Shown here in pieces: positions 21,949 to 60,968 of a DNA stretch of 64,000 nt. The stretch is taken from contig JAEHCO010000002.1 of the NCBI GenBank assembly GCA_020697715.1, positions 192,001 through 256,000 on the forward strand, written 5' to 3'. A program made the position numbers and the translations under genes. The notes below the pieces were generated by a model that did not search any database, was not told the DNA's origin, and saw only the letters and a program-made list of their open reading frames with translations. The first letter of the stretch is position 1; every line of letters starts with the position of its first letter. This DNA is from Methanobacteriota archaeon. GTDB lineage: Archaea; Thermoplasmatota; Thermoplasmata; SG8-5; JAGLSY01.

Positions 21949-22071
21949 GGCTGACAGCGTTCTGCGGTTCCCGTGGACTCTCGTACCACAGTACAGCGCA
22001 GAACGCAGGTGGGCTTAACTTCTGGGTTCGGAATGAGACCAGGTGTGGCCCCACCGCTTTGACCGTCAATC
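21949..22071 (-). rRNA. rrf: 5S ribosomal RNA (stand-alone)
   Basis: Minus strand reads GATTGACGGTCAAAGCGG...CTCATTCCGAACCCAGAAGTTAAGCC...GTACTGTGG...GGGAA...CTGTCAGCC. It contains the CCGAAC loop and its termini pair. Confidence 0.95.
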
Positions 22072-22872: not shown

Positions 22873-22883
22873 GTTACATCAAG

Positions 22884-23090
22884 ATTTGTTAGCAGAGCAT
22901 TTTGTATTCAAGCATGCCCCGTCCCGAGAGACGCAGGGTCGGGGTACTCTCAGTGATGTGCCAGTGAGTGACAGTTACGATGTACTAGCAAAAAAATTAA
23001 CTGCTCGCTTTAAAATAGCGAGCAGTCAAATCAAACCCCGCCCCGATTAAAGCAGGGGCGGAGTCCTTATCCTCACCCAGCTCAACAAAC
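22884..23090. repeat. multi-hairpin intergenic element A, copy 2
   Basis: Same block order as copy 1. Ends ATTTGTTAGC / GCTCAACAAAC form an imperfect inverted repeat. Confidence 0.8.
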
Positions 23091-23105
23091 TATTTTCTCA
23101 GTAAT

Positions 23106-23145
23106 TTATATGAGCTTTCCCCAGGAATGCTCAACATTACATCCC
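23106..23145 (-). repeat. exact 40-bp duplicate of the 3' end (including stop) of the gene at 23254-24384
   Basis: TTATATGAGCTTTCCCCAGGAATGCTCAACATTACATCCC occurs at 23106-23145 and 23254-23293. Confidence 0.97.
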
Positions 23146-23253
23146 TGATACACCCCCACTTTTTTCTTTACCTTCGCTGTGCTGGCTTACCCTCCAAAGA
23201 AAAAAGACGGACAAAATAAGAAACTCGGGTAAGCCTGCTCGCTCAGGATTTGC
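23146..23253 (-). mobile_element. structured ~110-nt element B, copy 1 (putative non-autonomous element or ncRNA)
   Basis: Homologous to 47276-47385, with an identical 34-nt core TCCAAAGAAAAAAGACGGACAAAATAAGAAACTC. Bracketed by the 40-bp direct repeat. The mobile-element label is an inference. Confidence 0.65.
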
Positions 23254-24384
23254 TTATATGAGCTTTCCCCAGGAATGCTCAACATTACATCCCATATGCC
23301 CAAGATCCTCTCTCTGCACAGTGAGGGTTCCATCCAGCTTCCTGAAAGTGAAGTCATCCACTTCTGCCGGATATTCATTGTAATAGAGAATGGACCTCAT
23401 GCCCCATCTTCTGGGCTGTTGGAACCTCCAATAGGCTCTGGCATAGGCCTGTATCTTGATGAACATCTCCTTCTCATCATCCTTGCCAGATACGTAGAAG
23501 ACTGGCAAGCCTCTCTCGACCTCATGCTTGATCTTGATGTCCTTCTTATCGAAAAGGAAGAGCTCCTTTGTGGGGTGGTGATAGAATCTCATGTTCTTTG
23601 ATAATCGAATATCACCCCAGTCCAGCATGGATGTTGGCTTTTCAGTTGTGCGGAATATCTGTGGCCCGAAGAAGGGATTGAAGTATTCGAAATAGCTGCC
23701 ATCCTCACCGTGGCCGATACCCCAGTACCAGGTTGGTGCTGGCGCATTCACGGTCACACGTTGCTCATAGGCGGTTCCTTCAACAGGCTGGCCGTCAATG
23801 GTGCCTTTCATCTTCATGCCGTATATCTTGAGGATATTGTATCCCATCTTTTTGGTGTACTGGCGTTCATTGAAGCGATGCTCCTGCATGTAATCATTCC
23901 AGGGCGTCATCTCGAAATGAAAATCATTCTTGTCGTCCTTGACATTGACCGTGTATTTGTCTGGCCCTCCGAAGAAGCGGTAGTCCGCGCCTTCTACAAG
24001 TGGCTTGAGTTCGCCTTCTTCTCCATCATGGCGAACTTCGAAGTCCATTTCCTTAAGGACCAGAGGGTCGTGCATCTCCTTTCCATCATACCACCAGGCT
24101 GCTGTCATGCCATTGAATCGCATGACACCATCTTCTTTTGTCGTGGGCAGCTGTTTGAGCTTCCATTTCATGTCCATGACCTTGATGTCATCAGTGTATT
24201 TCGTTGACCAGAGTATCATGAACTGCTTTGTCCTGCCAGGATTGTCAGGGTCTTTTATGAAGAATATCCACCACCACCACCACCAGGTGAGATTGGGCAA
24301 CATATTGTCTGTTTTCAATACCCAGATGTTCTCATACGGCTTGTGAGCTTCAGATTCGATTTCATTGACCATTAACATGGACAT
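23254..24384 (-). CDS. hypothetical aromatic-rich beta protein, possibly tocopherol-cyclase/CrtC-like fold
   Basis: 376-aa ORF with WWWWWWIFF near the N-terminus, G.IDG..V.G.AY.Q.V, WYWG and terminal EHSWG. The fold call is an inference. Confidence 0.55.
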   Translation of the reverse strand: MSMLMVNEIESEAHKPYENIWVLKTDNMLPNLTWWWWWWIFFIKDPDNPGRTKQFMILWSTKYTDDIKVMDMKWKLKQLPTTKEDGVMRFNGMTAAWWYDGKEMHDPLVLKEMDFEVRHDGEEGELKPLVEGADYRFFGGPDKYTVNVKDDKNDFHFEMTPWNDYMQEHRFNERQYTKKMGYNILKIYGMKMKGTIDGQPVEGTAYEQRVTVNAPAPTWYWGIGHGEDGSYFEYFNPFFGPQIFRTTEKPTSMLDWGDIRLSKNMRFYHHPTKELFLFDKKDIKIKHEVERGLPVFYVSGKDDEKEMFIKIQAYARAYWRFQQPRRWGMRSILYYNEYPAEVDDFTFRKLDGTLTVQREDLGHMGCNVEHSWGKLI

Positions 24385-39890: not shown

Positions 39891-42800
39891 TTGATGAGAA
39901 GGGGAACACAGAATAGTGTGAATTTCGCAGGAAAATGTATGAGCATCATCATCGTGTGGTGCATGGTCTTGAGTGGTTTCATGGGCCTGTTCTTGGTCAA
40001 TGTGGGAACTGCCAGTGAGATCAATCCAAACACGATCAAGGAAGATCTGGTTGTTGACTCAGGTGACTTTGTCATAGAGAGTTTTCCCTGGGATCCACAA
40101 GGGAGCTGGATATATGATCTAGATGGCAGTGTAACTGTAACTGGAGCAAACTCATTGATATTGAAGAATTCTACATTGAACATACTTCAACTAGGCGCCT
40201 ACAGTCTGGATGTTTCAGCTGGTGGAACCATTAAAATGACAAATTCCACTATCACCACAGATTCTCTTGAATTCCTAAATGCCAGTTTTATTACAGGCTC
40301 AAATTTGATAATGGATGATAACTCGGCTCTTCTTTTCCCAGGAAACTTAACTTTTGATACCTCATCTGTTAATATAAAGGATTCTCAAATTATTAACCCG
40401 GTCATATATTTTGATACATGTACTGATGTGACCATTGCTGACTCTAAGATAGTGGTTCCAGGAAATGCTAATGGCTCATTCTATTTGGATAGCACAGAAA
40501 TGTCTATTATCAACACAGACATAAATTTTGATTATACTCTTGATAACAATACTAATTGCCAGATGAATCTAACTGCTGGCTCATATTTGTATGCCTATAA
40601 CATGACTGTTGGAGACCTTACAGAACCAATTTTTATCTTCGCTGATGCCGTCTCTGAAGTTTACTACTACAAATGGGCAGAGTTCTCAGTTGTTGACTCA
40701 AATAATAATCCAATATTCGGGGCTGGATTGAGTTGTGATTACCATCACACAGATGCCGCAGCCATCACCTATGTGGATAATATGAATAATCTGGCATTAG
40801 CTCCACATACAAATGCAGATGATCGGATGATAGATTATTTGAATAGAATATCACCAGACACCATCACCTCTGCAAACTATGATGTGACTAACAGTGATGG
40901 TATGGCTCTGATTCCTCTATTTACTACCCTTCATTCACAGGCTGAACAGGCAATAGATGTAGACGGACACCATTATGGAGAATATAATGTTGATGTCACT
41001 TATTCGGCAGAAACAGGCTACACCTATGTTGACTTTTCACCATATCCGGAAATTAAGTTGATAAATAATACTGTTGAGGCCCCGCCAGTTCAGATGACAG
41101 GTGTTACATTGACAAGGCCAGATCTCACACTCGTGCCAGGCGATATCACTTTCAATCCAGCTATGGATATCATGATCGGTGATTCTGTTGAGATCAATGT
41201 TACAATTAATAATGAAGAGATCACCAATGCACTGGATGTTTTCGTTCAGATATTTGATTATGATGATCTGTCTGGTATACCAACAGAGATATACAACACG
41301 ACCATAGCTTCAGTACCTGGTAATGATGATGTGTATTTTTTGATAGATTATATCTTCCTAGTGGGAGGCCTGCACGATATCATGGTGGTCATAGATTACA
41401 ATAATACAGTAATAGAAGAGAATGAGATGAATAACTCAGCTATTGCTTCTATCTATGTAACTCCAGACCTGCCCGAATTATCCATCGAGACCGCAAATAT
41501 TGGATTTTCACAGGAGAACGTCTCCTTTGATAATGAGATCACAATAACTGCCAGGGTTCGTAATAATGGAACATTGAATGGAACCAATGTGTTCGTATCT
41601 TTCTTTGATTCAGATCCAGACATGAATGGCGATGGAATCGTGGATAATAATGATGATGAACATTTCACTGTTATAGGCACAACTAATATTCCAAATATAA
41701 TGCCTGGTGAACTCATAACTACTTCGGTCAATTGGATACCTGAGATAGATGGAACATATACGATCTATGTTTGGGCGGATCCAAGCAATAGCTTCACCGA
41801 GTATTATGAGGATAATAACCTTGCATCCAGAGATATCATCATAACACCGAAACCAAACCCAACAATAACCAACTTCGCCTTTGATGATGATACTCCAATA
41901 ACTGGACAGACCGTTGAATTGTCATTGGATCTTATCAATATTGGAAACATCAATGCAACTGGAAATATCACAGTTGAATTCTATGATTATGATATGTACG
42001 GCAACCCTCTTGGACTGATCGGAACAGCACATATGAAAAGGGATCTGAACATGACCGAGACACACGTGATCTTGCAGGATTGGACACCAGTGAACATCGA
42101 TTATCATATGATACAGGTGATCGTGACCTCGGACAATGATGTTGATGAGGGAGACCTTACAGATAATGTATTCTACTTTGACATACTCGTATATGATGAT
42201 GGGTTCCAGGATCTTATAGTCAATAACACATTGCCTTTGTATTCTCCAATGGATCTTGAGATCATAGGAGACTACGGGCTGGATGGATATGCCCTTGTTG
42301 AAGAAAATGGCGTATTGACCATAGATTCCTCTACTTTCACCGTTAAGCAGGACTTTTCGTTCCAATTCAATATGATCGTCAAGGATAATGCGGTATTGAA
42401 TATTCTGGACACTTCGTTTTTGACAGCTGGTAGTTTCATGGAGCTTAATATCATGGATAATGCAGTTGTCAATATAGTTGGATCAAATCTGCCAACAACT
42501 CTCAATATCATCGCAGATGATTCTTCAACTGTGAATATCATTGGTTCAGTTATTGGTGGAATATTCAGCGCACCTGCTTCGGATGCGGATGTCACCCTCT
42601 ATGTGGAGAACTCCACCTTCTACAAACCTATGAATAATTTCGGTGGAACATCCACTGCACAACTTGTCGCATTGACAATGGCAATACCATCAATATTGGC
42701 ACAGGAATCCGCAAAGATAGAAATATACAGATGGCTGGATGTTCAGATATTGGACGCCAATGGATATCCATTGCCTGGAGCTGATGTTGATCTACATTAT

Positions 42801-45755
42801 CAGGTCGGAGACATATTCCAGGATACTCAGACAACTGATATGGATGGAAAAGTCCTGTTCATGGCTCTTAGTGATACTATCGTATATTCCGTACACCCAA
42901 GCGCGGCATCTACCAGTAATTACAGATTGACTTCTAGCTTCCTTACATATCAGGACCACATCAACATAACACTGCCTTACTATCCTGTCATGACATTGGC
43001 ATCAAATTACATTGTGAAGGATGCCAATGGTGTAGATCTATTGATCACCATGGATGGCGTCAGACCTGATCTTGATCCACCAATATATGTATCACCAAGT
43101 GAATTGGGTAGGAATGAGATATTGGAGATCTCGACAGTAATCAATAATCTTGGTAATGTCACAGCACACGATATCGTTGTAAGATTCTATGATGAGACCT
43201 TTGATGAGATCATCGCGGAAGTTCCAATGGAGCCATTGGCTGTCGGAGAGAGCCGAAGCGTCAATATCACTCACAGTTGGAGTAGCGAGATGTACCTGGG
43301 AGTACACAATATCTCGGTCACAGTGGATTGGGGTAACCTTGTCAAAGAACTGGATGAAACAAATAATCATGCATACACCAATGTGACTGTGGTCGGAAGA
43401 GCTGATCTCACCATTGGTGATTACGGCATTTCGATCGTTCAAGAAAGCGTTGTGAATCATCCGATCAGCATAGGTGTTATAGTGGATAATATTGGAGATA
43501 TTAACACAGCCGATGTCACTGTTAGTGCTTATTATGATGATGATGTTGACGGAACCTATAGTAATCTCACTGGAAGGAACATGACCTTCATTGGTGAGAC
43601 CACCATAGCTCTCATAATGCAGGGTAGCTCAGCTAGTATCGAGCCAATTGTATGGGTCCCGGACATGATCCAGACCTATAATATCACAATCATTGTTGAT
43701 GAAGGACTCGCCATCACCGAGGTCGATGAGGACAATAATATTGGTACTGACTCCATTACGGTAAATGATTACTCCGATATCTATGTTGGACAGGTACTCT
43801 TTATTGTTGATGGACAGGCTGTCACAGAGGTGAACAACAGAACCTTGGTCACAATAAGGGCTCTTGTTAACAATACTGGTGGGACTGCCAATACCGGTAT
43901 CGCCCGCTTCTATGACCATTATGACAATGAGATCGGTAATTACATATTGCCAGTCATCGGCACAGGTCCGGATGATGGTGTCATCGTCGATATGGATTGG
44001 TTCCCAATGGAAGACATGAATGGAAATTCGGTCACCAGGAATGTCGAGGTCAGGGTCACAGATATTGGAATGGGAGAGAACATGGGAGGACAGAGCAATA
44101 CCCTCACCGAATCTATAACCATCAATGATCCTCGCGCGGATCTTACCGCTGCAGTTGATGATCTCAATGTCATTACTGCGGATATCTTCGTATCTAGTGG
44201 ATTTGATGTTAATATCACTGTTTACAATAATGGTGATGACCCGGCTCAGAACTTCACTATTGAAGTGTTCTATGATGATATCATGGATGGGAACCGCATC
44301 GGAAGCATGATCGTGCAGACCCTTGCTGGAGATGCTAATGTCAGCGTGGACATGACCTGCATGGGAATACCAACCGATGGAGAACATTTCCTTTTGGTAT
44401 CAATTGACAGGGATGTTACAGATGATAACTTCACCGCGAATGGTATCAATTACAATATTACGGGTAATGTGGAAGAGTTCAATGAGATGAACAATGATCT
44501 GATCAATGTAACTATCGATGTTAGTATCCCTGAATATATCATCACTCTTGACTCACCTTCCCCTGATATCAGCTATGAATTGGGATCGGACATCAATAAT
44601 ACATTTGTGAGTGGACGGTTGGCAACAGCGACTGATGATGTTGGTGTTCCTGGAGTGACTATCACGATAACCCTTGGCACAAATACGGTGACAACGGAAA
44701 CAGATAATTATGGTAGCTTTGGAATCTCCATACCTCTGCCAACAGTTGTTGGACAGTACCAAGTGACAGCAAGTGCAGATAATTCCGAGGACACGACAAC
44801 ACAGATCAACATGGATGCAGAACCAGAAGATCCTATCTTGTTCTATATTATCATCATCATAATTGTTATTGTTGCAGTGATAGTGGGTATCACTCTATTC
44901 TACTTCAAGGGTCTTGGGAAGACCGTGGAGTGTGGAGAGTGTGGTGCTTTCATACCGGAATCAGCTTCCAAGTGTCCAAAGTGTAATGTCGAGTTCGAGA
45001 CAGACACAGCCAAGTGCAGTGTTTGCGGTGCATGGGTGGAAATGAATAGCAAAACATGTCCTGAATGTAGCTCGGAGTTCACCATTGGGGATGAGGAGAT
45101 CGATGATTACAAGGCCCAGATGAAGAAACAGTACAATGAAGTTGTCAATGGATTTAGAACAGAAGCTAAGAAAGAACTTGGCAGCTCATTCTCAGAAGAA
45201 GACTTCCAGGCCTGGTGGGCGACACAGGCCACCTTCATAACCTTCGATCAGTGGCTGAAGGAAGACGAGGAGATGAAACGCCTCGGATCCAAGCCATGTC
45301 CGAACTGTGCGACACCAAACAGCGTGACAGCAACCATCTGCCATAAGTGCGGAACTGTTATGGACGAGGAAAAGAAGAAGGCGGCACCAGCTGTTGCAGC
45401 AGCACCAGTGGCGGTTAAGAAGAAGGCAGAACCAGAAGTGGCAAAACCTGAAGCAAAACCAACACCTGCAGCTGAACCAGCAAAGGCAGCTGAAGAGGCA
45501 CCAGCCGAGGAAAAACCTGCTGAGGAACCAGCAGGGGATGAGAAGAAGAAATGTCCATCCTGTGGCATGGAACTCGGAGCCCATGAGAAGTCCTGTCCGA
45601 TATGCGCCTATGAATTCGACAAGGGTGATGAGAAACCTCCAGAAACTGGTGGCAGCCCGCCAGAAGGTGGAGCCGCACCAACCAAGAAGGTCGTTAGAAA
45701 ACCTGTCAAGAAGGTTGTAAGAAGGCCTGTACAAAAGACTGGTGGCGGCGAATAA
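39891..45755 (+). CDS. large CARDB-repeat surface protein with TM and cytoplasmic zinc-ribbon tail
   Basis: Multiple PDL/ADL...N.G...E..E.NN CARDB units and a TM helix (ILFYIIIIIIVIVAVIVG), then eight CxxC motifs and a K/A/P/E-rich linker. Confidence 0.8.
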   Translation: MMRRGTQNSVNFAGKCMSIIIVWCMVLSGFMGLFLVNVGTASEINPNTIKEDLVVDSGDFVIESFPWDPQGSWIYDLDGSVTVTGANSLILKNSTLNILQLGAYSLDVSAGGTIKMTNSTITTDSLEFLNASFITGSNLIMDDNSALLFPGNLTFDTSSVNIKDSQIINPVIYFDTCTDVTIADSKIVVPGNANGSFYLDSTEMSIINTDINFDYTLDNNTNCQMNLTAGSYLYAYNMTVGDLTEPIFIFADAVSEVYYYKWAEFSVVDSNNNPIFGAGLSCDYHHTDAAAITYVDNMNNLALAPHTNADDRMIDYLNRISPDTITSANYDVTNSDGMALIPLFTTLHSQAEQAIDVDGHHYGEYNVDVTYSAETGYTYVDFSPYPEIKLINNTVEAPPVQMTGVTLTRPDLTLVPGDITFNPAMDIMIGDSVEINVTINNEEITNALDVFVQIFDYDDLSGIPTEIYNTTIASVPGNDDVYFLIDYIFLVGGLHDIMVVIDYNNTVIEENEMNNSAIASIYVTPDLPELSIETANIGFSQENVSFDNEITITARVRNNGTLNGTNVFVSFFDSDPDMNGDGIVDNNDDEHFTVIGTTNIPNIMPGELITTSVNWIPEIDGTYTIYVWADPSNSFTEYYEDNNLASRDIIITPKPNPTITNFAFDDDTPITGQTVELSLDLINIGNINATGNITVEFYDYDMYGNPLGLIGTAHMKRDLNMTETHVILQDWTPVNIDYHMIQVIVTSDNDVDEGDLTDNVFYFDILVYDDGFQDLIVNNTLPLYSPMDLEIIGDYGLDGYALVEENGVLTIDSSTFTVKQDFSFQFNMIVKDNAVLNILDTSFLTAGSFMELNIMDNAVVNIVGSNLPTTLNIIADDSSTVNIIGSVIGGIFSAPASDADVTLYVENSTFYKPMNNFGGTSTAQLVALTMAIPSILAQESAKIEIYRWLDVQILDANGYPLPGADVDLHYQVGDIFQDTQTTDMDGKVLFMALSDTIVYSVHPSAASTSNYRLTSSFLTYQDHINITLPYYPVMTLASNYIVKDANGVDLLITMDGVRPDLDPPIYVSPSELGRNEILEISTVINNLGNVTAHDIVVRFYDETFDEIIAEVPMEPLAVGESRSVNITHSWSSEMYLGVHNISVTVDWGNLVKELDETNNHAYTNVTVVGRADLTIGDYGISIVQESVVNHPISIGVIVDNIGDINTADVTVSAYYDDDVDGTYSNLTGRNMTFIGETTIALIMQGSSASIEPIVWVPDMIQTYNITIIVDEGLAITEVDEDNNIGTDSITVNDYSDIYVGQVLFIVDGQAVTEVNNRTLVTIRALVNNTGGTANTGIARFYDHYDNEIGNYILPVIGTGPDDGVIVDMDWFPMEDMNGNSVTRNVEVRVTDIGMGENMGGQSNTLTESITINDPRADLTAAVDDLNVITADIFVSSGFDVNITVYNNGDDPAQNFTIEVFYDDIMDGNRIGSMIVQTLAGDANVSVDMTCMGIPTDGEHFLLVSIDRDVTDDNFTANGINYNITGNVEEFNEMNNDLINVTIDVSIPEYIITLDSPSPDISYELGSDINNTFVSGRLATATDDVGVPGVTITITLGTNTVTTETDNYGSFGISIPLPTVVGQYQVTASADNSEDTTTQINMDAEPEDPILFYIIIIIIVIVAVIVGITLFYFKGLGKTVECGECGAFIPESASKCPKCNVEFETDTAKCSVCGAWVEMNSKTCPECSSEFTIGDEEIDDYKAQMKKQYNEVVNGFRTEAKKELGSSFSEEDFQAWWATQATFITFDQWLKEDEEMKRLGSKPCPNCATPNSVTATICHKCGTVMDEEKKKAAPAVAAAPVAVKKKAEPEVAKPEAKPTPAAEPAKAAEEAPAEEKPAEEPAGDEKKKCPSCGMELGAHEKSCPICAYEFDKGDEKPPETGGSPPEGGAAPTKKVVRKPVKKVVRRPVQKTGGGE

Positions 45756-46256: not shown

Positions 46257-47204
46257 ATGGATCTTGCAGAAAGAGTTCTGTCTGGTGACAAGAGGGGCGT
46301 TGCAAGACTTATAAGCCTCATCGAGTCAGAGGATGAGGACGCGTATGTTCAACTTGGAAAACTACATTCTCATACAGGCAATGCTCACATCATTGGTATA
46401 ACCGGGCCACCCGGATCTGGAAAGAGCACTATTGTTGACAAATTGGCAAAAGCATTCAGAGGTATGGACAAGACCGTGGGTATCATCGCGGTCGATCCAA
46501 CAAGTCCATTCACTGGAGGCGCGATCCTGGGAGATCGGATAAGAATGACCGACCTCACACTTGATCCTGGAATTTTCATAAGAAGCATGGGGACACGCGG
46601 ACATCTTGGCGGACTTTCCAGAGCCGCATCCGGAGCTGTCAGGGTGATGGATGCCTATGGCATGGATATTATAATTCTGGAAACTGTAGGGGCAGGTCAA
46701 TCCGAAGTCGAGATAGTCAGCCACGCCCACACCACGATCATCGTTGAAATGCCAGGTCTGGGGGATGAGATCCAGACCATCAAGGCCGGCATAATGGAGA
46801 TCGGAGATATTTTCATAATCAATAAATCCGATAGGGAAGGAGCGGACAAAACATCGATGGAGATACAAGCGATGTTGGGTCTGAACCCGAACAAACCCGA
46901 ATGGGTGCCACCAATAATCCAGACGATCGCCAGAAAAGGAAAGGGAGTGGATGCGGTTATTGAGAAAATAGAAGACCACTATCAATACCTGAAAGATAGT
47001 GGTATGTACGAGAAGATGATCGAGCAGGGAATAAGGGAAGAGCTGGACGTGCAGATAAAGAGCCAGCTCGGAAGGATCATCAAAAACATCATCAATGAGG
47101 AAAAGCTCGAAGACCTTGTAAAGGATATCGTGGACAAGAATATCGATCCTCACACTGCTGCAAGGCTTCTATTGAAAGATATTGAAGATAAGTTAAGTGA
47201 GTGA
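46257..47204 (+). CDS. meaB: methylmalonyl-CoA mutase-associated GTPase MeaB
   Basis: GPPGSGKST, AVDPTSPFTGGAILGDRIRM, ETVGAGQSE and NKSD. Confidence 0.93.
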   Translation: MDLAERVLSGDKRGVARLISLIESEDEDAYVQLGKLHSHTGNAHIIGITGPPGSGKSTIVDKLAKAFRGMDKTVGIIAVDPTSPFTGGAILGDRIRMTDLTLDPGIFIRSMGTRGHLGGLSRAASGAVRVMDAYGMDIIILETVGAGQSEVEIVSHAHTTIIVEMPGLGDEIQTIKAGIMEIGDIFIINKSDREGADKTSMEIQAMLGLNPNKPEWVPPIIQTIARKGKGVDAVIEKIEDHYQYLKDSGMYEKMIEQGIREELDVQIKSQLGRIIKNIINEEKLEDLVKDIVDKNIDPHTAARLLLKDIEDKLSE

Positions 47205-47230
47205 AAATATATCACTCGCTCGGTTGCCAC

Positions 47231-47275
47231 TTATTTCTTGTACTTAGCACAGATCTTAATGAAATTCTTAAAAAT
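47231..47275 (-). repeat. exact 45-bp duplicate of the 3' end (including stop) of the GMP synthase subunit A gene
   Basis: TTATTTCTTGTACTTAGCACAGATCTTAATGAAATTCTTAAAAAT occurs at 47231-47275 and 47386-47430. Confidence 0.97.
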
Positions 47276-47385
47276 CTCTTCCCCACCACTTTTTTCTTTA
47301 AACCTCGCTGTGCTGTATCGGGCTCCAAAGAAAAAAGACGGACAAAATAAGAAACTCGCCCGACCCTGCTCGCTCGGTATATGAT
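47276..47385 (-). mobile_element. structured ~110-nt element B, copy 2
   Basis: CCACTTTTTTCTTTA...TCGCTGTGCTG...34-nt identical core...CCTGCTCGCTC, as in 23146-23253. Bracketed by the 45-bp direct repeat. Confidence 0.65.
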
Positions 47386-47958
47386 TTATTTCTTGTACTT
47401 AGCACAGATCTTAATGAAATTCTTAAAAATATCCTCGCCGTACTCAGTATGCTCGACCTCTGGGTGGAATTGCACACCATAGAATGGTTTTTCCTTGTGC
47501 GCGAAAGCCTGGTGCGCACAATCTTTTGAATGCGCGAAGTTCTTGAAAGTGTCCGGTAGAATTTTGACCTCATCATTATGCGATTCCCATACTTGGAAAG
47601 GGTTTGTCACACCTTCGAAGAGTTCATTCTCCTCTTCGATGATGACCGATGTCTTTCCGAACTCCGGAATGCTGGCAGGCCCGGCGGTTCCACCATAATA
47701 AAGGGCCATGAACTGTGCGCCGACACATATTCCCATGATCGGAAACTTCGCTTTGTCAAGATAGTCGCCGCTGTTTCCCAGCATAAGTGCTTCCTCACCT
47801 ATTCTTGGTGCTCCACCAGATAGGATAAGACCATCGACATCCAGGTCCTCGAAGGGTGTGGTATTTGGAATTATCTCTGTTTCCACATCCAGATATTTCA
47901 AAACCCTCCACTCTCTATGGGTCCACTGTCCGCCATTGTCTACAACGAAGATCTTCAT
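47386..47958 (-). CDS. guaAA: GMP synthase subunit A (glutamine amidotransferase)
   Basis: MKIFVVDNGGQWTHRE, LSGG, GICVGAQ, SHNDEV and QFHPEV.HT. Start set at 47958. Confidence 0.92.
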   Translation of the reverse strand: MKIFVVDNGGQWTHREWRVLKYLDVETEIIPNTTPFEDLDVDGLILSGGAPRIGEEALMLGNSGDYLDKAKFPIMGICVGAQFMALYYGGTAGPASIPEFGKTSVIIEEENELFEGVTNPFQVWESHNDEVKILPDTFKNFAHSKDCAHQAFAHKEKPFYGVQFHPEVEHTEYGEDIFKNFIKICAKYKK

Positions 47959-48156
47959 TGACGGGTACATGATGAGATGGGATAAAATGGTTGTGGAAAT
48001 CACCTTATGTTCATTGATATTTTCCAAGTCTTGCTAGAGATATCTAAAATCTGGCAATTAACAATGTTTAGATGTGTTTGCCAGCACACAATCTGGATAG
48101 CTAACCAACAGTAACTATTAATAAGAAATAATTGTATGCAGTTAATGAGGATTAAA

Positions 48157-51100
48157 ATGAAGATAAAAGGTATTTCTATTATTCTTGTTATGATAATGAT
48201 CACTAGCACCATAGTGATAGGTGCGGATGTAGAGGATGATACTCTATATGTGCCCCACGGTGCTATAAGGATCAACAGTGATGGGGAATTCGCAATACAG
48301 GCTGGCATAAATGGATGGCCTGGTGATGGCTCCGAAGGTGCGCCTTATGTCATCTTCGATTACGAGATAACTGGGGTCGGGCCCGGCATCTATATTGGAA
48401 ATACATCTGTGCATTTTATCATTGACAGCAATTATATCCATAGCATAACAGGAACTTCTGGTATGGAGCTGTTCAATGTTGAGAATGGCATCGTTCTCAA
48501 CAACATCATTGATGGGGTCACAGCCCCAAATTCTGCTGTGCCAGGCGGGGATGGAGGCACAGCTTCTGGAATCTTTATCGATGCAGGTATTGGCCTGACC
48601 ATAGCCAATAATTCAATAGCAAACATAACAGGCGGCAATGGAGGTGACGGAAGCCATGGCTCAGGAGGGGCACCTCCTACCGATGGTAGTCCAGGAGGAG
48701 ACGGAGGTGGCTCTTTCGGTATTTATGTTTATGATTCTCCCTTTGGAACCATTGCCAACAATGACATCAGCCTCCTTCTTGCCGGAAACGGTGGCCTTGG
48801 TGGTAATGGAGGAGAAGGAGATTACGAGTCCGGATCTGATGGGGCGTTCGGAGGAGACGGCGGCATGGGAGGAGCTGCCGCCGGTATATTCTTAGCCACT
48901 TCAGAGCAAGAGGTCACAGGAAATCAAATTGCCCAATTGGCTGCAGCCGATGGTGGAAGCGGCGGCGCTGGCGGAACAGGCGCCGGTACTATGTTCGGCA
49001 CACCAGGTAATGGTGGCTTCGGAGGCTATGCAGGAGATGGAGGCTTAGCTGCTGGTATCCTGATATCCAATCAACCTTCAACCTTACAGAACAATTATCT
49101 AGATTTGAACACAATCAGCCAGATAAATGGCGGTGATGGCGGATGGGGTGGACCCGGCGGAGATGGTGGGACAAAAGATTTTGGAACTGGTGGCAATGGC
49201 GGTGATGGCGGCTGGGGCGGCAATGCCGGAGAGGCTGCTGGCTCCTACTGTGAAATTGCAACTGGCATAATTTATGATGATAATGATATTCATGATATAT
49301 TTGCAGGCAGCATTGGTTTTGCTGGTACCGGTGGCTTTGGGGGAGGAATGATCGCCGGACTTGACGGGTCCAATGGCCAGGATGGATGGCCTGCGATTCC
49401 GGCTGGCATCAAGATGGTGTCTGTAGGCAATACCGAGATAACCAGGAATCACATCCATGACATAGTTGGTTATTATGTCCATCTGGATACTGTTGACAAT
49501 TCCTTCATTTATTACAACTCATTCATTAACTGTGCGAATGGCGAATACGAGACTCATTTCAATCCATCAAACAACCAGTGGGACAATGGATATCCAAATG
49601 GAGGAAATTACTGGTTCGACTATGGTGGCGTGGACTTTTTCGAGGGTGTTAACCAAGATATACTTGGAGAGGATGGCTTTGGTGATACACCGAGAGCCAT
49701 CAATGAAGATTTCGCGGTGGCCCAGGACAGATATCCATTGATATGGGACCCTGCCGGTACAGCGAACATCGATGTGCTGGAAACGGTTCCAGCCGATGAG
49801 GAAGTTGGTGTTGTGGAGGACACGATGATCCAGGTCACATTCGACCCTAGGATTAATTCCATCCCCACTTTGACCCAAACATCAGGAACTCCTGTGACCT
49901 ACACATTCGCCGGATTAATAACGGTGTATCAGACAGATGACACTGCCACATGGACACATCCAGATTGGGTCAGTGGAGAGGATATCACCCTTGAGGTCAA
50001 CAATATCAGGAGTTATCCAGTTGCCGAATATGCCCTCCCATACTCATGGTCATTCACAGTTGGTGATACAAAGGCACCAACTGTTCTCTCGACAACACCA
50101 GCAGATGGATCAACAGGGGCCGGACTCACAGATAGTGTGGTCGCTGTCTTCAATGAGACACTGAACACATTGGTAACACCTGCATTGGCTCAGCTGGTAG
50201 GTGATGATCCAGGCTACACATTCACTGGCTTCAGCACCACGAATGTGCCTGATGACACGTTGACATGGACGCATCCAGCATGGACAGATGAGGATGCGGT
50301 AACACTTGAAATATCATTAACAGAAGACATGGCGGGCAATGCCATGACACCATATTCCTGGTCATTCGATACTGAGGATATCACCGACCCTAATGTGCTT
50401 TCGACCATTCCTGTTATAGCAGCAACATCAGTGCCCAAGGGCCAGAATGTGGTCGTAGTTTTCACAGAGACCATGGACACAGGAGCAATACCCTTCATAA
50501 CAATGGATGCTGGAACAAACCCCGGAGGCTGGACCTTCCTCGGATGGAGCACGACCAATGTGGCCGATGATACAGCCACATGGAGTCACAATGACTGGCT
50601 TGATGGAGAGATGATCAGCATGCGCGTTCAGAGCTATCGCGACCTAGAGATGAACTGGGGGCCGCCCGTGAACTGGGCCTTCTGGATAGAAGATACTGTC
50701 TCACCAGATGTGGACAATACCAGTCCTGCTGATGGAGCTACTGATGTCTTTGAGACCTTCAATAATGTGAACATTTACTTCAGTGAATCCATGAATGGTA
50801 GCATAACCCCGACCCTGACCCAGATCACTGGCGATGTAGTGGGCTACACCTTCCTAGGATGGTTCACGACCTATGTGGAAAATGACACGGCCGCTTGGAA
50901 TCATGCAGCACAGTGGAGCTCCAATGACCTTATTACATTGAATGTGACCGGGCAGAAGGATCTGGCCGGGAACACTGGCGCCCCCTACGAGTGGTCATTC
51001 ACGATACGCGATTACGATGACCCGTACATTCTTGAGACCACACCGCCGGACGGCGCAACAGGTGTGGCACTGGACACCACCATAGTGGTCGTGTTCTCAG

Positions 51101-54100
51101 AGCCAATGCTGTACGAAGGGAACCTTGTGGTCACCACTGGCTTTGAAGGAGAGGTCTACACCTTCCAGGGATTGACACAGACCTATGTCGAGAACGATAC
51201 CGCGACATGGACGCACACTGGCTGGAATGAAGGCCGGTTCAAACAGATCACACTTCAGAACTTCCAGGATATGAACAGCCATATCGTGACAGAATCATTC
51301 TCCTTCACGACCGTGGATCCAACTCCGCCCACGGTCGAATGGATCCAGCCGCAGGACGGCCAGTTCTTCATACCCTATGATAGGACCGTGATAGTTCGCT
51401 TCAATGAATCAATGAACACATCACAAATTCCAACACTCACACAAACACAAGGTGATGTTGTCGCCTATACCTTTGCAGGCTGGAGCACAACAGATGTTGC
51501 GGACGACACCGCATCATGGACACATCCGAACTGGAGCGATGGAGACCAAATAACTCTGAATATCTCTGATTACAAGGATCTTTCCGATAATACTGGAGAT
51601 CCTTATGACTGGACATTTACAATTACTGACACAATAGACCCCTGGATCACATCCACATCACCTGCAGATGGAGATATGATGGTGCCGACTGGAACCACAC
51701 CTATTGTGATCGATTTCTCAGAGGATATGAACACTGCCCTGACACCAGTCATAAACTACCTGCAGTATGATTTCACCAACCCTGCCATCACCTTCTCGCA
51801 TTGGCAGACCGACAGCTCGGTCGTCTTCGATGTTGCGGCGCCTTTCACTGAGCAGGACCATATCTGGCTTGAGGTGTCTGGCGGAATGGAGGACCTTTAT
51901 GGAAAGGCTGTTCCCTCTTATAACTGGCAGTTCCACATAGAGGATTACACCAACCCAGGAATTAGCCACACCATGCCCTTCGACGGCGATTTCGGAATTC
52001 TTCCGGATACCATGTTGGAGGTATATTTCACAGAAAGATTGAACCATTCTGTTGAGCCAACTCTCACACAGACCCTTGATGATCCAGGAGGCTGGGCATT
52101 CGGCGGATTCGGCACATGGGAGACTGGTGAGCAAACCTGCAGCATGGCCTACTGGACCCACAATAACTGGACAAGCGAGGAGGTAGAGCTTACGGTTTCC
52201 GGATACCAGGACTTCTCTGACAACTCAGGAGCCCCGTACAATTGGACATTCAGCATCTTTACCGAGCCTATTGGTATGCCCCACCCTCCAATAAGGATCA
52301 ACAGCAATGCGGATATGGACATGATGGCCACAGCCGAGGGCTGGGACGGAGATGGTAGTGCTGGCTGGCCTTATATTATCGAGAACTATGATATAGCTGG
52401 CGACAGCTGGCCTTATGAAGGCTGGTGTATCTACATCGGCAATACGACCTATCATTTCGAAATTGTGAACAATCTGCTTCATTATGTCTGGACCCCCACC
52501 CCTGTAGAGCCCTGGGTTCCTAACTCGGCCATCGTCCTGTATAATGTTATCAATGGAGTGATCGGTGAGAACCAAATAGAGGATGTGTACTCTGATTACG
52601 GCATATATCTGGATACTGTCCAAGACACGGCCATCTACGGTAATTTCATAAACAAGACATTCAACAATGGCATCTTCATGACCAACTGCAACTTCCTGTA
52701 TATAGAGAACAATACGATAGAGGGCGACCCTGAGAACATCATGGGCACCGGCATCTATGCATTGGATTCTCCATTCAATCAGATGGTGGACAATAAGATC
52801 TACTATATGTCCAATGGTATCTTGCTGGAGAATTCCGGTGATGGAGAACTGCACTGGAACGAGATATTCATGTGTGAGTGGGGTATCACTCTGGACCCCA
52901 GCAGCGACACGGATTCTGACAATATATTGATAGAGAACAATACCATGCTTGGTTGTGGTCTCTTTGTGTGGGGCTGGGAAATTAGACATTGGGACAGCCA
53001 TACCGTTGTGAACAATATGGTGAATGGCGGAGAACTGGTCTACCTAATGGGTGAGTTCATGTACGACCTGCCTCCAGAAACAAGGGCAGGGCAGATATTC
53101 ATTGTAGATTCGCAGTTCATAAACATAGATTATCAAGTCTTCCAGCAGGCCACTGTGGGAATTCAGGCATTTAGTTCATCTGATATTACAATTAATAACT
53201 GTACATTCGTAGATAATATGTGGGGCATATTCTTGGGAGCGACACAGGTACTGGCATATCACAATACTTTCATTGGAAATGACGTTCATGTCAATGACGA
53301 CTGGGGTGCTAGTGATTGGGATAATGGCTATCCGATAAGTGGGAACTTCTGGGATGATTATATCGGCGTGGACAACTTTTGGGGACCAGACCAGAACATA
53401 CCTGGCTTCAGTGATGGTGTTGGAGATACTCAGTATGACTTCTTTGATGGAGCTGGTGGTACCGACAATTATCCTCTGATGGATCCACTCAACTACACTA
53501 CCTTTGATATTCCTATGGACGAGGGATGGAATTTCATCTCACTTCCTCTATTGCCTGCAGACTTCCTTTACTACACCAACACAACAATAGACAATGTATT
53601 GGAATCTCTAAATTACAATTGGGATATGATAATGGTCTATGATCCAATGAGTCCTGGCAGCCCATGGAGAACATTCAATAGCGACATACCAGATCAATTG
53701 AACGACCTGTGGAACCTGACCCATATCCAGGGCATCTGGATAAATGTGACACAGACTGGCCAGACCCTGTCGATATCAGGATATATGTCAGCTTACATAG
53801 ATATAGATCTATATGCAGGCTGGAATCTTATTGGATATCCCGCGATAGATGATACTACCTACTCTATCGGTGATATGAAGCTTGATACTGGTGCGACCAT
53901 TGTGGAAGGCTTCAATGCCTCAGCACCCTATGATATCAGTGTGCTGGCTGATGCTTATATCATGAAGAAGGGTGAGGCCTACTGGGTCTATGTTCCTGCT
54001 GATACGACATGGACCGTGAACATATTGGGCCATGTGACACCTCCAGATGACCTTCTGAGTGAAAGAACTGAATATATTCGGGATCATCCAGATCAAATAT

Positions 54101-54258
54101 CAGACACTATGGGAAATGAGGATGGCATTCCTTTGGATGTAGGTAATGACTTGATATTAGTTACAAAGGCAATTACCATACCAGTTGCTCTGCTATCACT
54201 TATTGTGTTCATGTTTGTTCTTCTTACGAGAAGAAGAACAACTGGCCGTAAGCAATGA
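48157..54258 (+). CDS. large surface protein with two NosD-like beta-helix domains, Gly-rich segment and tandem Ig-like repeats
   Basis: PH..IRINS...GW.GDGS...PY.I and WDNGYP..GN.W.DY each occur twice. GG.GG.GG runs, eight P.V..T.P.DG / F.E.MN / Y.W.F units, GWN.ISLP module and C-terminal TM. Confidence 0.8.
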   Translation: MKIKGISIILVMIMITSTIVIGADVEDDTLYVPHGAIRINSDGEFAIQAGINGWPGDGSEGAPYVIFDYEITGVGPGIYIGNTSVHFIIDSNYIHSITGTSGMELFNVENGIVLNNIIDGVTAPNSAVPGGDGGTASGIFIDAGIGLTIANNSIANITGGNGGDGSHGSGGAPPTDGSPGGDGGGSFGIYVYDSPFGTIANNDISLLLAGNGGLGGNGGEGDYESGSDGAFGGDGGMGGAAAGIFLATSEQEVTGNQIAQLAAADGGSGGAGGTGAGTMFGTPGNGGFGGYAGDGGLAAGILISNQPSTLQNNYLDLNTISQINGGDGGWGGPGGDGGTKDFGTGGNGGDGGWGGNAGEAAGSYCEIATGIIYDDNDIHDIFAGSIGFAGTGGFGGGMIAGLDGSNGQDGWPAIPAGIKMVSVGNTEITRNHIHDIVGYYVHLDTVDNSFIYYNSFINCANGEYETHFNPSNNQWDNGYPNGGNYWFDYGGVDFFEGVNQDILGEDGFGDTPRAINEDFAVAQDRYPLIWDPAGTANIDVLETVPADEEVGVVEDTMIQVTFDPRINSIPTLTQTSGTPVTYTFAGLITVYQTDDTATWTHPDWVSGEDITLEVNNIRSYPVAEYALPYSWSFTVGDTKAPTVLSTTPADGSTGAGLTDSVVAVFNETLNTLVTPALAQLVGDDPGYTFTGFSTTNVPDDTLTWTHPAWTDEDAVTLEISLTEDMAGNAMTPYSWSFDTEDITDPNVLSTIPVIAATSVPKGQNVVVVFTETMDTGAIPFITMDAGTNPGGWTFLGWSTTNVADDTATWSHNDWLDGEMISMRVQSYRDLEMNWGPPVNWAFWIEDTVSPDVDNTSPADGATDVFETFNNVNIYFSESMNGSITPTLTQITGDVVGYTFLGWFTTYVENDTAAWNHAAQWSSNDLITLNVTGQKDLAGNTGAPYEWSFTIRDYDDPYILETTPPDGATGVALDTTIVVVFSEPMLYEGNLVVTTGFEGEVYTFQGLTQTYVENDTATWTHTGWNEGRFKQITLQNFQDMNSHIVTESFSFTTVDPTPPTVEWIQPQDGQFFIPYDRTVIVRFNESMNTSQIPTLTQTQGDVVAYTFAGWSTTDVADDTASWTHPNWSDGDQITLNISDYKDLSDNTGDPYDWTFTITDTIDPWITSTSPADGDMMVPTGTTPIVIDFSEDMNTALTPVINYLQYDFTNPAITFSHWQTDSSVVFDVAAPFTEQDHIWLEVSGGMEDLYGKAVPSYNWQFHIEDYTNPGISHTMPFDGDFGILPDTMLEVYFTERLNHSVEPTLTQTLDDPGGWAFGGFGTWETGEQTCSMAYWTHNNWTSEEVELTVSGYQDFSDNSGAPYNWTFSIFTEPIGMPHPPIRINSNADMDMMATAEGWDGDGSAGWPYIIENYDIAGDSWPYEGWCIYIGNTTYHFEIVNNLLHYVWTPTPVEPWVPNSAIVLYNVINGVIGENQIEDVYSDYGIYLDTVQDTAIYGNFINKTFNNGIFMTNCNFLYIENNTIEGDPENIMGTGIYALDSPFNQMVDNKIYYMSNGILLENSGDGELHWNEIFMCEWGITLDPSSDTDSDNILIENNTMLGCGLFVWGWEIRHWDSHTVVNNMVNGGELVYLMGEFMYDLPPETRAGQIFIVDSQFINIDYQVFQQATVGIQAFSSSDITINNCTFVDNMWGIFLGATQVLAYHNTFIGNDVHVNDDWGASDWDNGYPISGNFWDDYIGVDNFWGPDQNIPGFSDGVGDTQYDFFDGAGGTDNYPLMDPLNYTTFDIPMDEGWNFISLPLLPADFLYYTNTTIDNVLESLNYNWDMIMVYDPMSPGSPWRTFNSDIPDQLNDLWNLTHIQGIWINVTQTGQTLSISGYMSAYIDIDLYAGWNLIGYPAIDDTTYSIGDMKLDTGATIVEGFNASAPYDISVLADAYIMKKGEAYWVYVPADTTWTVNILGHVTPPDDLLSERTEYIRDHPDQISDTMGNEDGIPLDVGNDLILVTKAITIPVALLSLIVFMFVLLTRRRTTGRKQ

Positions 54259-57801: not shown

Positions 57802-57907
57802 CTGATCGGTTGTAGAATTGGTGGTATAAAAAGATATGTTCATTATGATATAGTCTAGCTTATAGCCTATACATGGGAATTTTCAGATCATTTAGGGACA
57901 GATAGTT

Positions 57908-60900
57908 CTAAACCAGAGATTCATCGCAGATCGGACATATGATATCAGAAGATCCGACTATGGCACCGCAAGCGGGACATTCCTTCTTTTCTTCTTCGAC
58001 AGTTCCAACCATTGCACCACACAGGAAACATTCTGTGGAATCAGCATCAAGACTTGCTCCACATTCGGAGCAATCCACATGTTCTTCCTCGGATGGCTCT
58101 TCCGTGACAACTGAATCCTCAATATCTATATCGGGTTCAGCCTCTATCATTGGAACTTCAACACCATTCTCTTGTGGTATGTCTGCCCCGTCGAATAATG
58201 TGTCACACACTGGACATTCTCCTGCATCCAAGTCCACGAATATACCGCATCCTGGACATTTCTTGTGATCTTCATGCTCGGTTGGAAGCTCGGCTCCAAG
58301 ATCATCCTCTTCTGGAATATCCGTATCTGGTGAAGCCAATTCCGGTTCTGCTATCTCTTCTGTATCTGGCTCGGCTTCTATTTGCGTATCAATGGGAGTA
58401 ATGACCTCTCCGCAAAGGAAACATTCTGTTGAACCCGCTTCGAGGGATGCACCACAGCTTCCACAATCGACATGTTCTTCTTCTACGGCCACAGCTGTGG
58501 TCTCCACGATGGTCTCGGCTTCCAGAGCTTCTGTTTCCACTGGTTCTTCGATCTCTGTCTCTATGGATTCAGGCTCTGCCTCCAAAGTCTCTGTTTCCAC
58601 AGGTTCTATTTCAGCATCGACCTCTTCTGCCTCAGGTTCGGTCTCTATCGGATCATCGGTCTCAAATGGAGCTGCCAGATCATCCTCGGTAAGAGCTTCT
58701 TCGATAGTAGCTGGAGTTTCTTCTTCCATCAGTGGTTCTTCAATAATTGGTTCAGTGCTGATAGCTTCTGCCTCGTCTAGATCATTCAAATTAAGATCAT
58801 CTTCAATTTCCTCTTCAGGTAATTCAAGCTCAGAAACCTCTTCAATTTCAGGTTCATCAAGAACAGGTTCATCCTCCACTTCCTCGGGTATGTCCAATCC
58901 TAGATCTTCCTCTATGACATCGAGATCATCTGCCTCTGATATCTCTAAATGTGTTTCCTCAAAGACTTCCTCTTCGAGAATTTCCTCCTCATCGACCTCA
59001 TCAGCAAGGATCTGTTCAGATAATGCCTCTATATCGGCATCTTCAGGCATGGCGGAATCATCGATCAACTCGTCTTCTTCTCCATACTCTTTCTCTTCTT
59101 CTTCAATAAGAGTTAGGTTGCAGTTTATACAGTTGGTCATATCTTCTGAGACCTCGACACTGCACTGAGGACATTCTATGAGTTCCTGGCCGATCCTGTA
59201 TGATATGAACCAGAATGCGAATCCAATCAATACCAATACCCATCCTGCAAGGCTGGCAACAACATCAAATGGCGGAGCACTTCCTCCTACTGACTGACTT
59301 TCCACGCTTATTCCTCTAAGCCATACTGAAAATGAAGTAAAGAATATTCCTATGAATATGGTAATGATACCTCTGTAGAACCATGTGTCCTCATTGACCT
59401 TTCTAGGTGTACGATCAAGCCCAATGACCTTCTCCCCACAACTGGGGCAGATATGTGCTGTTGGCTGTACAAGGGTTTCGAGCCCATCCCATTCTTTCTC
59501 TGGCTCTATCTCCTCGGCTATTTCAATGCCATACTCGACACCACATATTGGACAATGTTCTTCATCATCTGGACCAAAATGAGCTCCACAGACAAGACAT
59601 TCCTTGTCATCTTCGTCTTCCTGATCGAGAATGGACATTTCTTTTTCCAATTCTTCTGTGACTCCAGCATCATCTATATCTATGTCCATGAGAGCATCTA
59701 CCTCTGGTATGGCCTCATAACTCACTTCTTCCGTGGTCTCTTTTATAAGTTCGACCACTGCGAAACAATTTGGACATGTGTCTGTATCAACTGGCAGGGG
59801 GCAATCGCATGATCCACATTTAATATATAATGATAGGTCCGCCCAGCATTCGGTACATTTCTCAACGTCTCTCTTGATCGTGCTTGAACATGATGGGCAC
59901 TTCATCTCATCATCTGCGAGTTGCGGAACCTCTTCTTCTATTATGCCATCAACCACATCTTCCATCTCTTCACTAAGATCTTCTGGCGTGGATGTTTCAA
60001 GTGGAGGTAGATCATCATCTTCTGGAGTGAGAACCTCTATGGTCTCCTCTTCTGTGATGATGGTCTCTTCAATGACCTCAGTCTCGTCAGTGACACCCTC
60101 TAGTTCCTCTTCAGATATTGCATCTTCAATTGGCTGAGCTCCATCTGCAATGACCACTGTGCCACAAAGGAAACAATCCTTCGCATCAGCGTCAAGCGAG
60201 GCTCCACAGTCATGACATTCGATGTGAGCTTCCTCTGTTTGTTCTGCAATGGTCTCAGTTTCCATGACTTCGGCCTCTACAGGTTCTTCCACCTCTGCCT
60301 CTACTGGCTCTGCTTCCACAGTTTCTTCTACATCGGCCATTTCTTCTTCAATAGGAGATCCATCTGGTTCCATCTCGGGTTCAGCTTCTGGAACTTCCTC
60401 TTCAGAGATATCTGCATCAGGCGACATATCTTCGTCACCTGGCTCTTCCACGGTCTCTGTTATTTTCTCTGTTGAAATTGAAGCTGTTTTGATGATGGAA
60501 GCACCGCATAGGAAGCATTCATCAGAGCCATTATCTTGTAGAGCACCACATTCCGGGCACTCATTATGAACTTCTTGCTCTGCTTCAACCTCTTCTGATG
60601 GTTCTTCATCAATTGTATCTGGAGTAATTATTGGTATGGCCGCACCGCATAGGAAGCATTCATCACCACCATTCTCCTGTAGAGCACCACATTCTGGGCA
60701 CTCGCTGTGAGCTTCTTCTTCTATTTCGGGAGCAATATCTACTTTGAGATCAACTACTTCACCGCAAACAGGGCAGTTATCTGAATCAATTGCTATCTGT
60801 GCGCCACATTCTGGGCAGTCTGCTTCAGCCTCTGGTTCAATAACAGCTTGAGGTGCATTGAACTCTTCCTCTATCTGCGCACCACAGATCGAGCACGATG

Positions 60901-60964: not shown

Positions 60965-60968
60965 GCGA

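Follow-up and report, generated by a model that had tools for sequence, protein, structure and literature searches.

The analysed window, a stretch of 64,000 nucleotides (nt) from contig JAEHCO010000002.1 of an uncultured archaeon of the Thermoplasmata, carries an exact 45-nt repeat at the 3′ end of guaAA, the gene of GMP synthase subunit A. We consider it likely that the sequence between the two repeat copies, at positions 47285-47385, is a non-coding hairpin element of roughly 100 nt (element E) which inserted at the guaAA 3′ end, and that the 45-nt repeat represents its target-site duplication. What the data support is a mobile unit of defined extent that inserts with a long staggered duplication, has a polar arrangement and is anchored at gene ends. 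Positions without a contig label are window coordinates. The source genome of the window is referred to as G000 (2.12 Mb in 34 contigs, 93.8% complete), and G001 and G003 are genomes of the same genus; C-labels denote contigs of G000 (C50 of G003 excepted), L-labels denote fetched loci, and R and R′ denote the gene-end copies.

The guaAA locus and its counterparts in related genomes

The two repeat copies at guaAA (47231-47275 and 47386-47430) are identical at 45 of 45 positions with a spacing of 155 nt, and when three mismatches are allowed the repeat extends to 54 nt at 94% identity. The second copy begins at 47386, which is the last base of the TAA stop codon of a minus-strand open reading frame (ORF; 47386..48027). 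This ORF encodes GMP synthase subunit A (NF001975, 246.6 bits), with the profile matched to its last positions. An original prediction, made from the sequence alone, had described a 45-nt repeat ending exactly at the stop codon, and this description holds to the base. An exact 45-nt repeat at a distance of 155 nt is far beyond chance, and an assembly artefact is excluded, since the same architecture is present in independently assembled relatives with diverged sequence.

Between the copies lie 110 nt (47276-47385). They align to 23146-23253 with 79% identity over 96 nt and in identical orientation. This second site, locus 1, has its own repeat (23106-23145 and 23254-23293, identical at 40 of 40 positions, spacing 148 nt), the right copy of which begins at 23254, the stop of the minus-strand ORF 23254..24384. 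The meaB gene (TIGR00750, 346.3 bits) ends on the plus strand at 47204, and hence meaB and guaAA are convergent. The shared element with its shared orientation, both spacings and the position between convergent genes had all been predicted. The same is true of the motif CTCGCTCGGT, expected 6-7 nt outside both repeat copies and located at 47215-47224 and 47369-47378, i.e. 6 and 7 nt ahead of them. The features of the two loci are as follows (coordinates, strand where assigned, description).

46257..47204, plus strand: meaB, methylmalonyl-CoA mutase-associated GTPase, left neighbour (from the ORF list; stop codon TGA at 47202-47204)
47215..47230, plus strand: putative right-end relic of an earlier E copy, CTCGCTCGGT with a 6-nt tail; matches the conserved right box and stands directly before R′
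47231..47275, minus strand: R′, non-coding copy of the last 42 nt and the stop codon of guaAA, outer duplication copy; single copy at the unoccupied G001 site
47276-47284: probable diverged continuation of R′ (6/9 positions match)
47285..47385, plus strand: element E (family profile matches, 31-copy alignment, covariation)
47286-47299: CCAC and T-run of E
47303-47315: left box of E, CCTCGCTGTGCTG
47316-47323, paired with 47358-47363: inner stem of E
47327-47337: A-run of E
47366-47377: right box of E, CTGCTCGCTCGG
47378-47385: 8-nt tail of E
47386..47430, minus strand: R, functional guaAA 3′ end, inner duplication copy; stop codon 47386-47388
47386..48027, minus strand: guaAA ORF with TTG start; the profile match begins at residue 24
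23106..23145, minus strand: R′ of locus 1, copy of the last 37 nt and the stop codon of a 376-aa gene
23146..23253, plus strand: E copy of locus 1, orientation as at guaAA; the G003 ortholog differs by two compensatory stem pairs
23254..23293, minus strand: R of locus 1, functional 3′ end of ORF 23254..24384 (no NCBIfam match)

Comparison of the meaB-guaAA region in relatives, a check proposed along with the original prediction, reveals both states of the site. It is unoccupied in G001, where a single gene end is present and 11 nt separate the two stop codons. In G003 the site holds a long-loop E together with three copies of the guaAA end, namely an older diverged copy, one copy before E and one after it. 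Seven further loci are filled in G003 and empty in G000, and at each of them the two flanks of E overlap when placed in G000 coordinates, by 26 to 203 nt:

G003 L146: 26 nt
G003 L137: 47 nt
G003 L151: 49 nt
G003 L138: 63 nt
G003 L134: 90 nt
G003 L149: 116 nt
G003 L145: 203 nt

At base level, all seven loci display a single copy at the G000 site and two copies around E in G003, and in each the left copy is contiguous with the upstream sequence of the empty site. The reverse case is found at C32, where the E copy of G000 is absent in G003 and one copy of the repeat stands. The repeat is a duplication made when the mobile E inserted; the empty site of G001, the seven G003-filled pairs and the one G000-filled pair bear out what had been claimed on this point. 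A flanking repeat is present at 13 of the 19 E copies of G000, and duplication length ranges from 18 nt (L134, middle copy) to ~225-235 nt (L145). At C32 and C29:104755, E is present in genomes of two families (L047 and L178, respectively), and some of the empty sites may be clean secondary losses.

Element E as a hairpin family

E is a non-coding interspersed family with conserved ends and a covarying stem. A family profile (hidden Markov model) built from the first matches finds 19 copies plus fragments in G000 at an E-value <1e-5, and according to BLAST, 20 of 41 related genomes, G000 among them, carry the family, namely 17 of the 22 genomes of the order and 3 of 19 from the wider class. 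Among the matches listed, the titled public records with true E copies are metagenome-assembled genomes labelled Thermoplasmata, Thermoplasmatota, Methanobacteriota or 'euryarchaeote'. A pattern scan of public genome contigs returned chance matches in GC-rich bacteria alongside genuine archaeal copies, and counts are not based on it. Viral contigs gave three pattern matches, none of which is recognised by the E profile, and these are taken as chance. Metagenome contigs gave no match to the guaAA-end pattern, and a 20-nt core pattern returned 35 loci from them, one of which carries E. A search of window positions 20000-50000 against Rfam 15 (E-values up to 1) returned a 5S rRNA as the sole match and none for E.

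Read in order, the consensus begins with the C-rich end CCAC, the T-run CTTTTTTCTTT, the left box CCTCGCTGTGCTGG and a variable stem arm, followed by the A-run AAAGAAAAAAG, a loop of variable length, the second stem arm, the right box CCTGCTCGCTCGG and a short variable tail. Long-loop variants exist, and the boundaries of E are constant over more than 60 copies. On an alignment of 31 copies from G000 and G003 (~103 columns), RNAalifold pairs the boxes and variable arms as one long imperfect hairpin of 16 pairs, with two-sided changes in 11 of them and 91% of cells paired. The T-run and the A-run also pair (11 pairs, two-sided changes in 4, 84%). The covariation score of the whole structure is 0.317 versus 0.146 in shuffled alignments, a value attained by none of 500 shuffles (0/500), and controls with slid pairing reach at most 64% paired. 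Two compensatory base pairs differ between the orthologous locus 1 copies of G000 and G003. The two helices of E cross, and on steric grounds (a 4-nt linker over a helix of 16-21 bp) simultaneous folding as a pseudoknot is unlikely.

Runs of at least five T are found on both strands in 23 of the 31 aligned copies. Oligo-T is a terminator signal in archaea. At the guaAA locus the T-run of E (47289-47299) comes directly after R′ (47231-47275). The meaB transcript may hence terminate with 45 nt fully complementary to the last part of the guaAA mRNA, and judging from the sequence, a regulatory pairing of the two is conceivable.

Several loci carry traces of events that followed insertion. Tandem units of E and flank with near-identical E copies are present at L142, L180, L189 and L134, and at locus 1 of G003 the 21 nt ahead of the left copy consist of the right end of E and its tail, which makes a 60/60 repeat. 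In G000, seven solo right boxes (CTGCTCGCTCGG) lie outside full copies, compared with ~0.25 predicted by uniform base use. Five of these seven stand 10-38 nt before a tail-on ORF stop, tail-on meaning that the right-hand neighbour gene ends toward E (with E written in window orientation). The motif CTCGCTCGGT is the conserved right box of E itself, and it is missing at 5 of 7 unoccupied sites inspected. The original prediction had offered two readings of this motif, a target motif or an earlier round of insertion. The latter is supported by the identity with E's own right box, by the triple gene end of G003, and by the arrays and solo boxes; the former is contradicted by the five empty sites that lack the motif. 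Since CTCGCTCGGT is the right box of E, and since solo boxes and arrays exist, 47215-47230 is best read as a relic of an earlier E copy. The locus 1 copies are identical at 40/40 positions within G000 and within G003, and 8/40 positions differ between the two genomes, which points to ongoing homogenisation by recombination between copies. Recombination between the duplicated copies would explain the arrays, the relics, clean loss and copy identity.

Polarity and the gene-end anchor

The right box and tail of E always face the outer edge of the duplication, and its CCAC/T-run end faces the inner edge. The outer edge usually coincides with the last base of a gene, and the inner edge lies inside the gene at a C-rich end. 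Sixteen tail-on sites were tabulated by eye on the basis of alignments and rough ORF calls, and the table is thereby limited in precision. Nine of them have a duplication that begins at the stop codon to within 1 nt, with TAA, TAG and TGA all in use. The binomial probability of nine out of 16 is 4e-10 at a chance of 3 in 91 per site, and 0.007 at a generous 0.25. Two more sites are arguable, and five lie 2 to ~24 nt off the stop. Duplications at targets other than stop codons complete the list.

On the stop codon (nine sites): guaAA; locus 1; C29:127566; C29:104755 (with its ortholog L178); C32; L137; L149; L145; L183
Arguable (two sites): C15 (3-nt indel); L142 (identity continues into a relic)
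Off the stop, C11:474583: +2
Off the stop, C11:818064: +9
Off the stop, L196: ~+22, with most of the ribosomal protein L40e gene within the duplication
Off the stop, L146 and C30: stop codon 13 and 24 nt outside the aligned repeat
Other target, L151: duplication starts exactly at an ATG start codon
Other target, L138: 12 nt before a start
Other target, L134: promoter and 5′ end
Other target, C11:558619: tRNA-Ser 3′ end and 4 nt
Other target, C11:46005: tRNA-like end, not called by ARAGORN
Other target, L002: end of another repeat family

The stop codons of the two copies at C32 are TGA and TAA, and at L183 the outer 41 nt are identical at only 22/41 positions in a hand alignment. The proposal that position rather than sequence defines the site is upheld by the nine on-stop sites, the two arguable ones and the use of all three stop codons. 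It does not extend to the five displaced sites, and it is not universal, since duplications also cover gene starts, promoters, tRNA ends and another repeat. Random boundaries relative to stop codons, which had been named as the finding that would speak against it, are not what the 16 sites display, the five displaced ones notwithstanding.

Survival bias as the cause of the anchor is rejected by reasoning and by the binomial test. Any edge at or beyond the stop codon would be harmless, so that selection alone would spread the edges over tens of positions and cannot set them on the stop. Erosion of a longer original duplication misfits C32, where the copies are identical at 44/45 positions and yet the adjoining bases are unrelated.

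Of 21 duplications with junctions read by eye, 10 have CC at the end of the inner edge, against ~5% expected, and this edge sometimes overlaps the left end of E itself, for example by 8 nt at C11:818064. The distance from the right box to the duplication is mostly 2-10 nt, and some sites have 20-54 nt of unique filler. An origin of the filler from the flank of a donor copy is rejected for these genomes, in which no source copy is found. E can also stand with its left end directly against a left-hand gene or tRNA of like orientation, at the stop codon or the 3′ end (C22:37804 and tRNA-Leu at C11:637305-637389; others by eye). A census of neighbour orientation with crude ORFs is noisy and indicates a trend at most. 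The GC skew of the large contigs is weak and replication origins are not placeable, and hence a bias for one replication strand is not interpretable.

At L151 of G003, a 38-nt unique filler (L151:1644-1681) separates E from the start of a membrane-protein gene, which is duplicated. It has a TATA-like box and a GGAGGT Shine-Dalgarno-like motif with the right spacing to the ATG. To judge from these motifs, it seems that the displaced gene obtains new expression signals from the inserted DNA.

Mechanism, alternatives and known systems

We propose that integration would join the two ends of E to opposite strands of the target at points 18-230 nt apart. One joining point would lie at a gene boundary, and the other would be picked with the help of a short match to the C-rich left end of E. 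Fill-in would then leave the intervening stretch on both sides of the element, such that the gene retains an intact 3′ end, the convergent neighbour retains its former downstream sequence, and E sets oligo-T runs on both strands between the two genes. Later recombination between the copies would give rise to tandem arrays of E and gene end, to deleted relics such as 47215-47230, to clean loss and to concerted evolution. The responsible enzyme would act in trans.

G000 encodes a single tyrosine recombinase (C29:40807-41310) and a single Y1 transposase. By profile score the Y1 protein is of IS200 type (116.3 bits), while with 23.9 bits it falls short of the RAYT cut-off of 80, and the ends of the IS200 copy show no E-like sequence. 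Reverse transcriptase (RVT_1) is present in 2 of the 22 genomes of the order; G000, one of the 22, has none. The Y1 gene (G000 C1:16359-16709; G003 C50:2010-2357, L225, L220) lies beside the same tRNA gene pair in both genomes but is oppositely oriented. The 3′ end of the Y1 gene is copied over 28 nt in G003, ahead of an E copy ~450 nt away, with the tRNA genes between them.

A number of results weigh against an insertion of E with a target duplication at gene ends, or against parts of this reading. Concerning the enzyme, G000, at its 93.8% completeness, has no matches to RVT_1, TnpB zinc ribbon, DDE_Tnp_1 (PF01609) or Cas1; the PF01609 search gave 0 matches, and other DDE families were not searched. 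Self-comparison of G000 reveals no multi-copy insertion sequence (IS). Y1 also occurs in the two genomes of another family (f3), neither of which has E; its location is not syntenic from one family to the next, and of six Y1 loci fetched with 5-7 kb of surrounding sequence, only that of G003 contains E. Concerning the duplication, 6 of the 19 E copies in G000 have none, and only 7 of 40 loci from more distant genomes display one; such copies may be old, or may have arisen without duplication. A CTCGG-like remnant stands at some of the 'empty' sites (guaAA in G001; near 83250 on C22 of G000), which are possibly secondary losses. No truly recent insertion was found, the copies differing by 7-27%, so that the state at birth is a reconstruction. 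Concerning the anchor, the five off-stop sites and the limited precision of the site table count here, and at the anchored sites no shared DNA feature was detected, nor any that could mark a stop codon. For the filler beside the right end of E no source was found: eight spacers (20-138 nt) have no second copy in G000 or the fetched loci, and that of L151 lacks one in four family genomes as well.

It is possible, though rather unlikely, that E represents a hitherto undescribed type of element that homes to gene ends as such, finding the stop codon (sometimes a start codon or tRNA end) by reading something other than DNA sequence and using host replication or repair enzymes alone. Coupling to translation termination or to RNA ends may serve as examples. 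If so, the duplicated end would avoid harm, and overlapping convergent genes would become separated, with a two-way terminator between them.

We regard as unlikely a scheme without any transposition, in which the hairpin of a resident E stalls replication and the repeats are local tandem duplications caused by slippage or template switching at short matches. A new site would come about if a nascent strand copied E at another place and then came back behind the position it had left. The negative transposase searches of G000, the C-rich matches at the inner junction, the tandem arrays of E and flank with near-identical E copies and the widely varying duplication lengths are in line with it, and bacterial REPIN clusters are likewise tandem repeats that include their flanks, according to the part of PMC3116915 consulted. 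However, a simple slip from within the gene to the left end of E predicts the order E-R′-E-R, whereas at L137, L149, L151 and C32 the left copy adjoins the flank of the empty site and no E lies to its left. The constancy of E boundaries over more than 60 copies fits a mobile unit better than copy-choice from a random template, and the stop-codon anchor is left unexplained by this scheme too. An RNA-mediated insertion by target-primed reverse transcription, as known for short interspersed nuclear elements (SINEs), would account for variable duplications, the junction match, the filler and the translation boundary. In its favour are the polar architecture, the variable lengths, the short match at the left junction and filler at the right junction only; moreover, stop and start codons as boundaries have meaning only at the RNA level. 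We consider it very unlikely, as RVT_1 is found in 2 of 22 genomes of the order and not in G000, whereas 17 of the 22 carry E, and as E has no A-tail.

Archaeal integrative elements duplicate 40-50 nt of gene or tRNA 3′ ends, and diversity-generating retroelements (DGRs) have a variable repeat at a gene 3′ end with a hairpin after it. Both facts speak for reading the repeats as attL/attR cores of an almost wholly deleted integrative element, or as a DGR-like pair of template and variable repeat, which we nonetheless hold to be extremely unlikely. A site-specific recombinase needs the same core, but the repeat differs at every locus while the ~100 nt between the copies belong to one family. G000 has a single tyrosine recombinase gene and no reverse transcriptase, and the copies are identical at 45/45 positions without adenine-specific differences.

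Of the known systems, MITEs (miniature inverted-repeat transposable elements) resemble E in being short, non-coding, non-autonomous, multi-copy and structured, with target duplications around them. Unlike MITEs, E has ends (CCAC-T6; CTCGG and tail) that are not inverted copies of each other, its duplications of 18 to ~230 nt are neither short nor fixed, and no parent IS was found. Insertions of long interspersed nuclear elements and SINEs in eukaryotes produce duplications of variable length and pair a precise with a variable junction, with a short match at the latter, and there are extra bases at a junction. E differs from them in its prokaryotic host, in the absence of an A-tail, and in the absence of reverse transcriptase from 20 of the 22 genomes of the order. 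Integron attC sites are folded imperfect hairpins with conserved boxes directly after stop codons, and integrative elements and casposons duplicate a gene or tRNA 3′ end such that the gene stays intact. In contrast, G000 has neither an integron integrase array nor Cas1. Unlike integrative elements, the sequence duplicated by E is specific in content to each site and not fixed in length, and ~100 non-coding nt without an integrase lie between the copies.

Bacterial REPINs, doublets of repetitive extragenic palindromic (REP) sequences, share with E the extragenic hairpin of ~100 nt formed from two conserved inverted boxes and present in tens of copies, and further the vertical persistence over a whole order, one-box relics and tandem clusters including flanks (as far as described in the consulted part of PMC3116915). 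A single-copy Y1 (HUH) transposase gene in most E host genomes is also a REPIN-like host trait. Differences are the archaeal host of E and its boxes, which by inspection are not palindromic units on their own although a long hairpin with inverted boxes is present. The conserved GTAG/CGTC tag of the REP 5′ end, as defined in the available portion of PMC3733652, is absent from the E boxes in the 31-copy alignment. The only Y1 of G000 scores as IS200 and not as RAYT, and E does not flank Y1 at five of six loci. Finally, single copies of E have gene-end-anchored duplications of 18-230 nt, while the portion of PMC3116915 at hand describes no target-site duplication for REPINs.

Long variable direct repeats upon insertion, as found with E, are known from IS1634 and IS1549 (IS1634 family), for which 8-514 bp are given without a mechanistic model, and the family reportedly favours Euryarchaeota (PMC2266710, in the sections consulted). 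Gene-end anchoring is not reported in these sections, whereas E is anchored. IS1634 and IS1549 are autonomous IS of 1.5-2 kb that possess both a DDE transposase and terminal inverted repeats; E lacks the latter, and G000 has no DDE_Tnp_1 match. The literature searched (supplementary files excepted) holds no description of the E family or of long duplications anchored at stop codons. We place E among the small non-autonomous, REPIN/MITE-like hairpin repeats, the nearest known systems being bacterial REPINs and IS1634/IS1549. Its two uncommon traits, the long variable duplications and the gene-end anchor, are well supported.

In the literature searched, small hairpin repeats of the REP/REPIN type with vertical persistence are described from bacteria alone, and E is a possible first archaeal counterpart, distributed across a whole order of uncultured Thermoplasmata. 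It is unusual for long variable duplications to have their outer edge exactly at a stop codon; the consulted sections of PMC2266710 give long variable ones for the two IS elements only. The E family offers dozens of natural events with clear polarity for modelling such duplications. The landing of E keeps both convergent genes intact and places terminator-like T-runs between them, a harmless insertion in a genome that is roughly 90% coding, and it illustrates how gene 3′ ends can be rebuilt. For annotation it is relevant that E duplications yield false short ORFs and pseudo-3′-ends.

Often next to E lies a further repeat family, Element A, with a length of ~150-240 nt and at least 10 copies in G000. 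It is located at 21666-21745 and 22873-23105 of the window, and further at C11:483193-483349, on C15 and at L002:1253-1487. Element A holds a perfect hairpin, CTGCTCGCT...AGCGAGCAG, with the same motif as the right box of E. The two elements may be handled by the same protein. A 5S rRNA gene (RF00001, 96.1 bits) lies at 21949-22070 on the minus strand, between two Element A copies. At C29:70249-70875, partial E copies alternate with repeats of a promoter-like stretch, TTTATATATTACACAAAA, which recurs on the right side of the E copy at C11:483449. Contig C3 matches C11:335213-348877 over about 13.5 kb at 83% identity, which probably reflects a second strain or close relative binned into the assembly. 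The window also contains very large ORFs at 39891-45755 and 48136-54258 (both plus strand; 1954 and 2040 aa), and Cys-rich internal repeats are present at 57900-62300.

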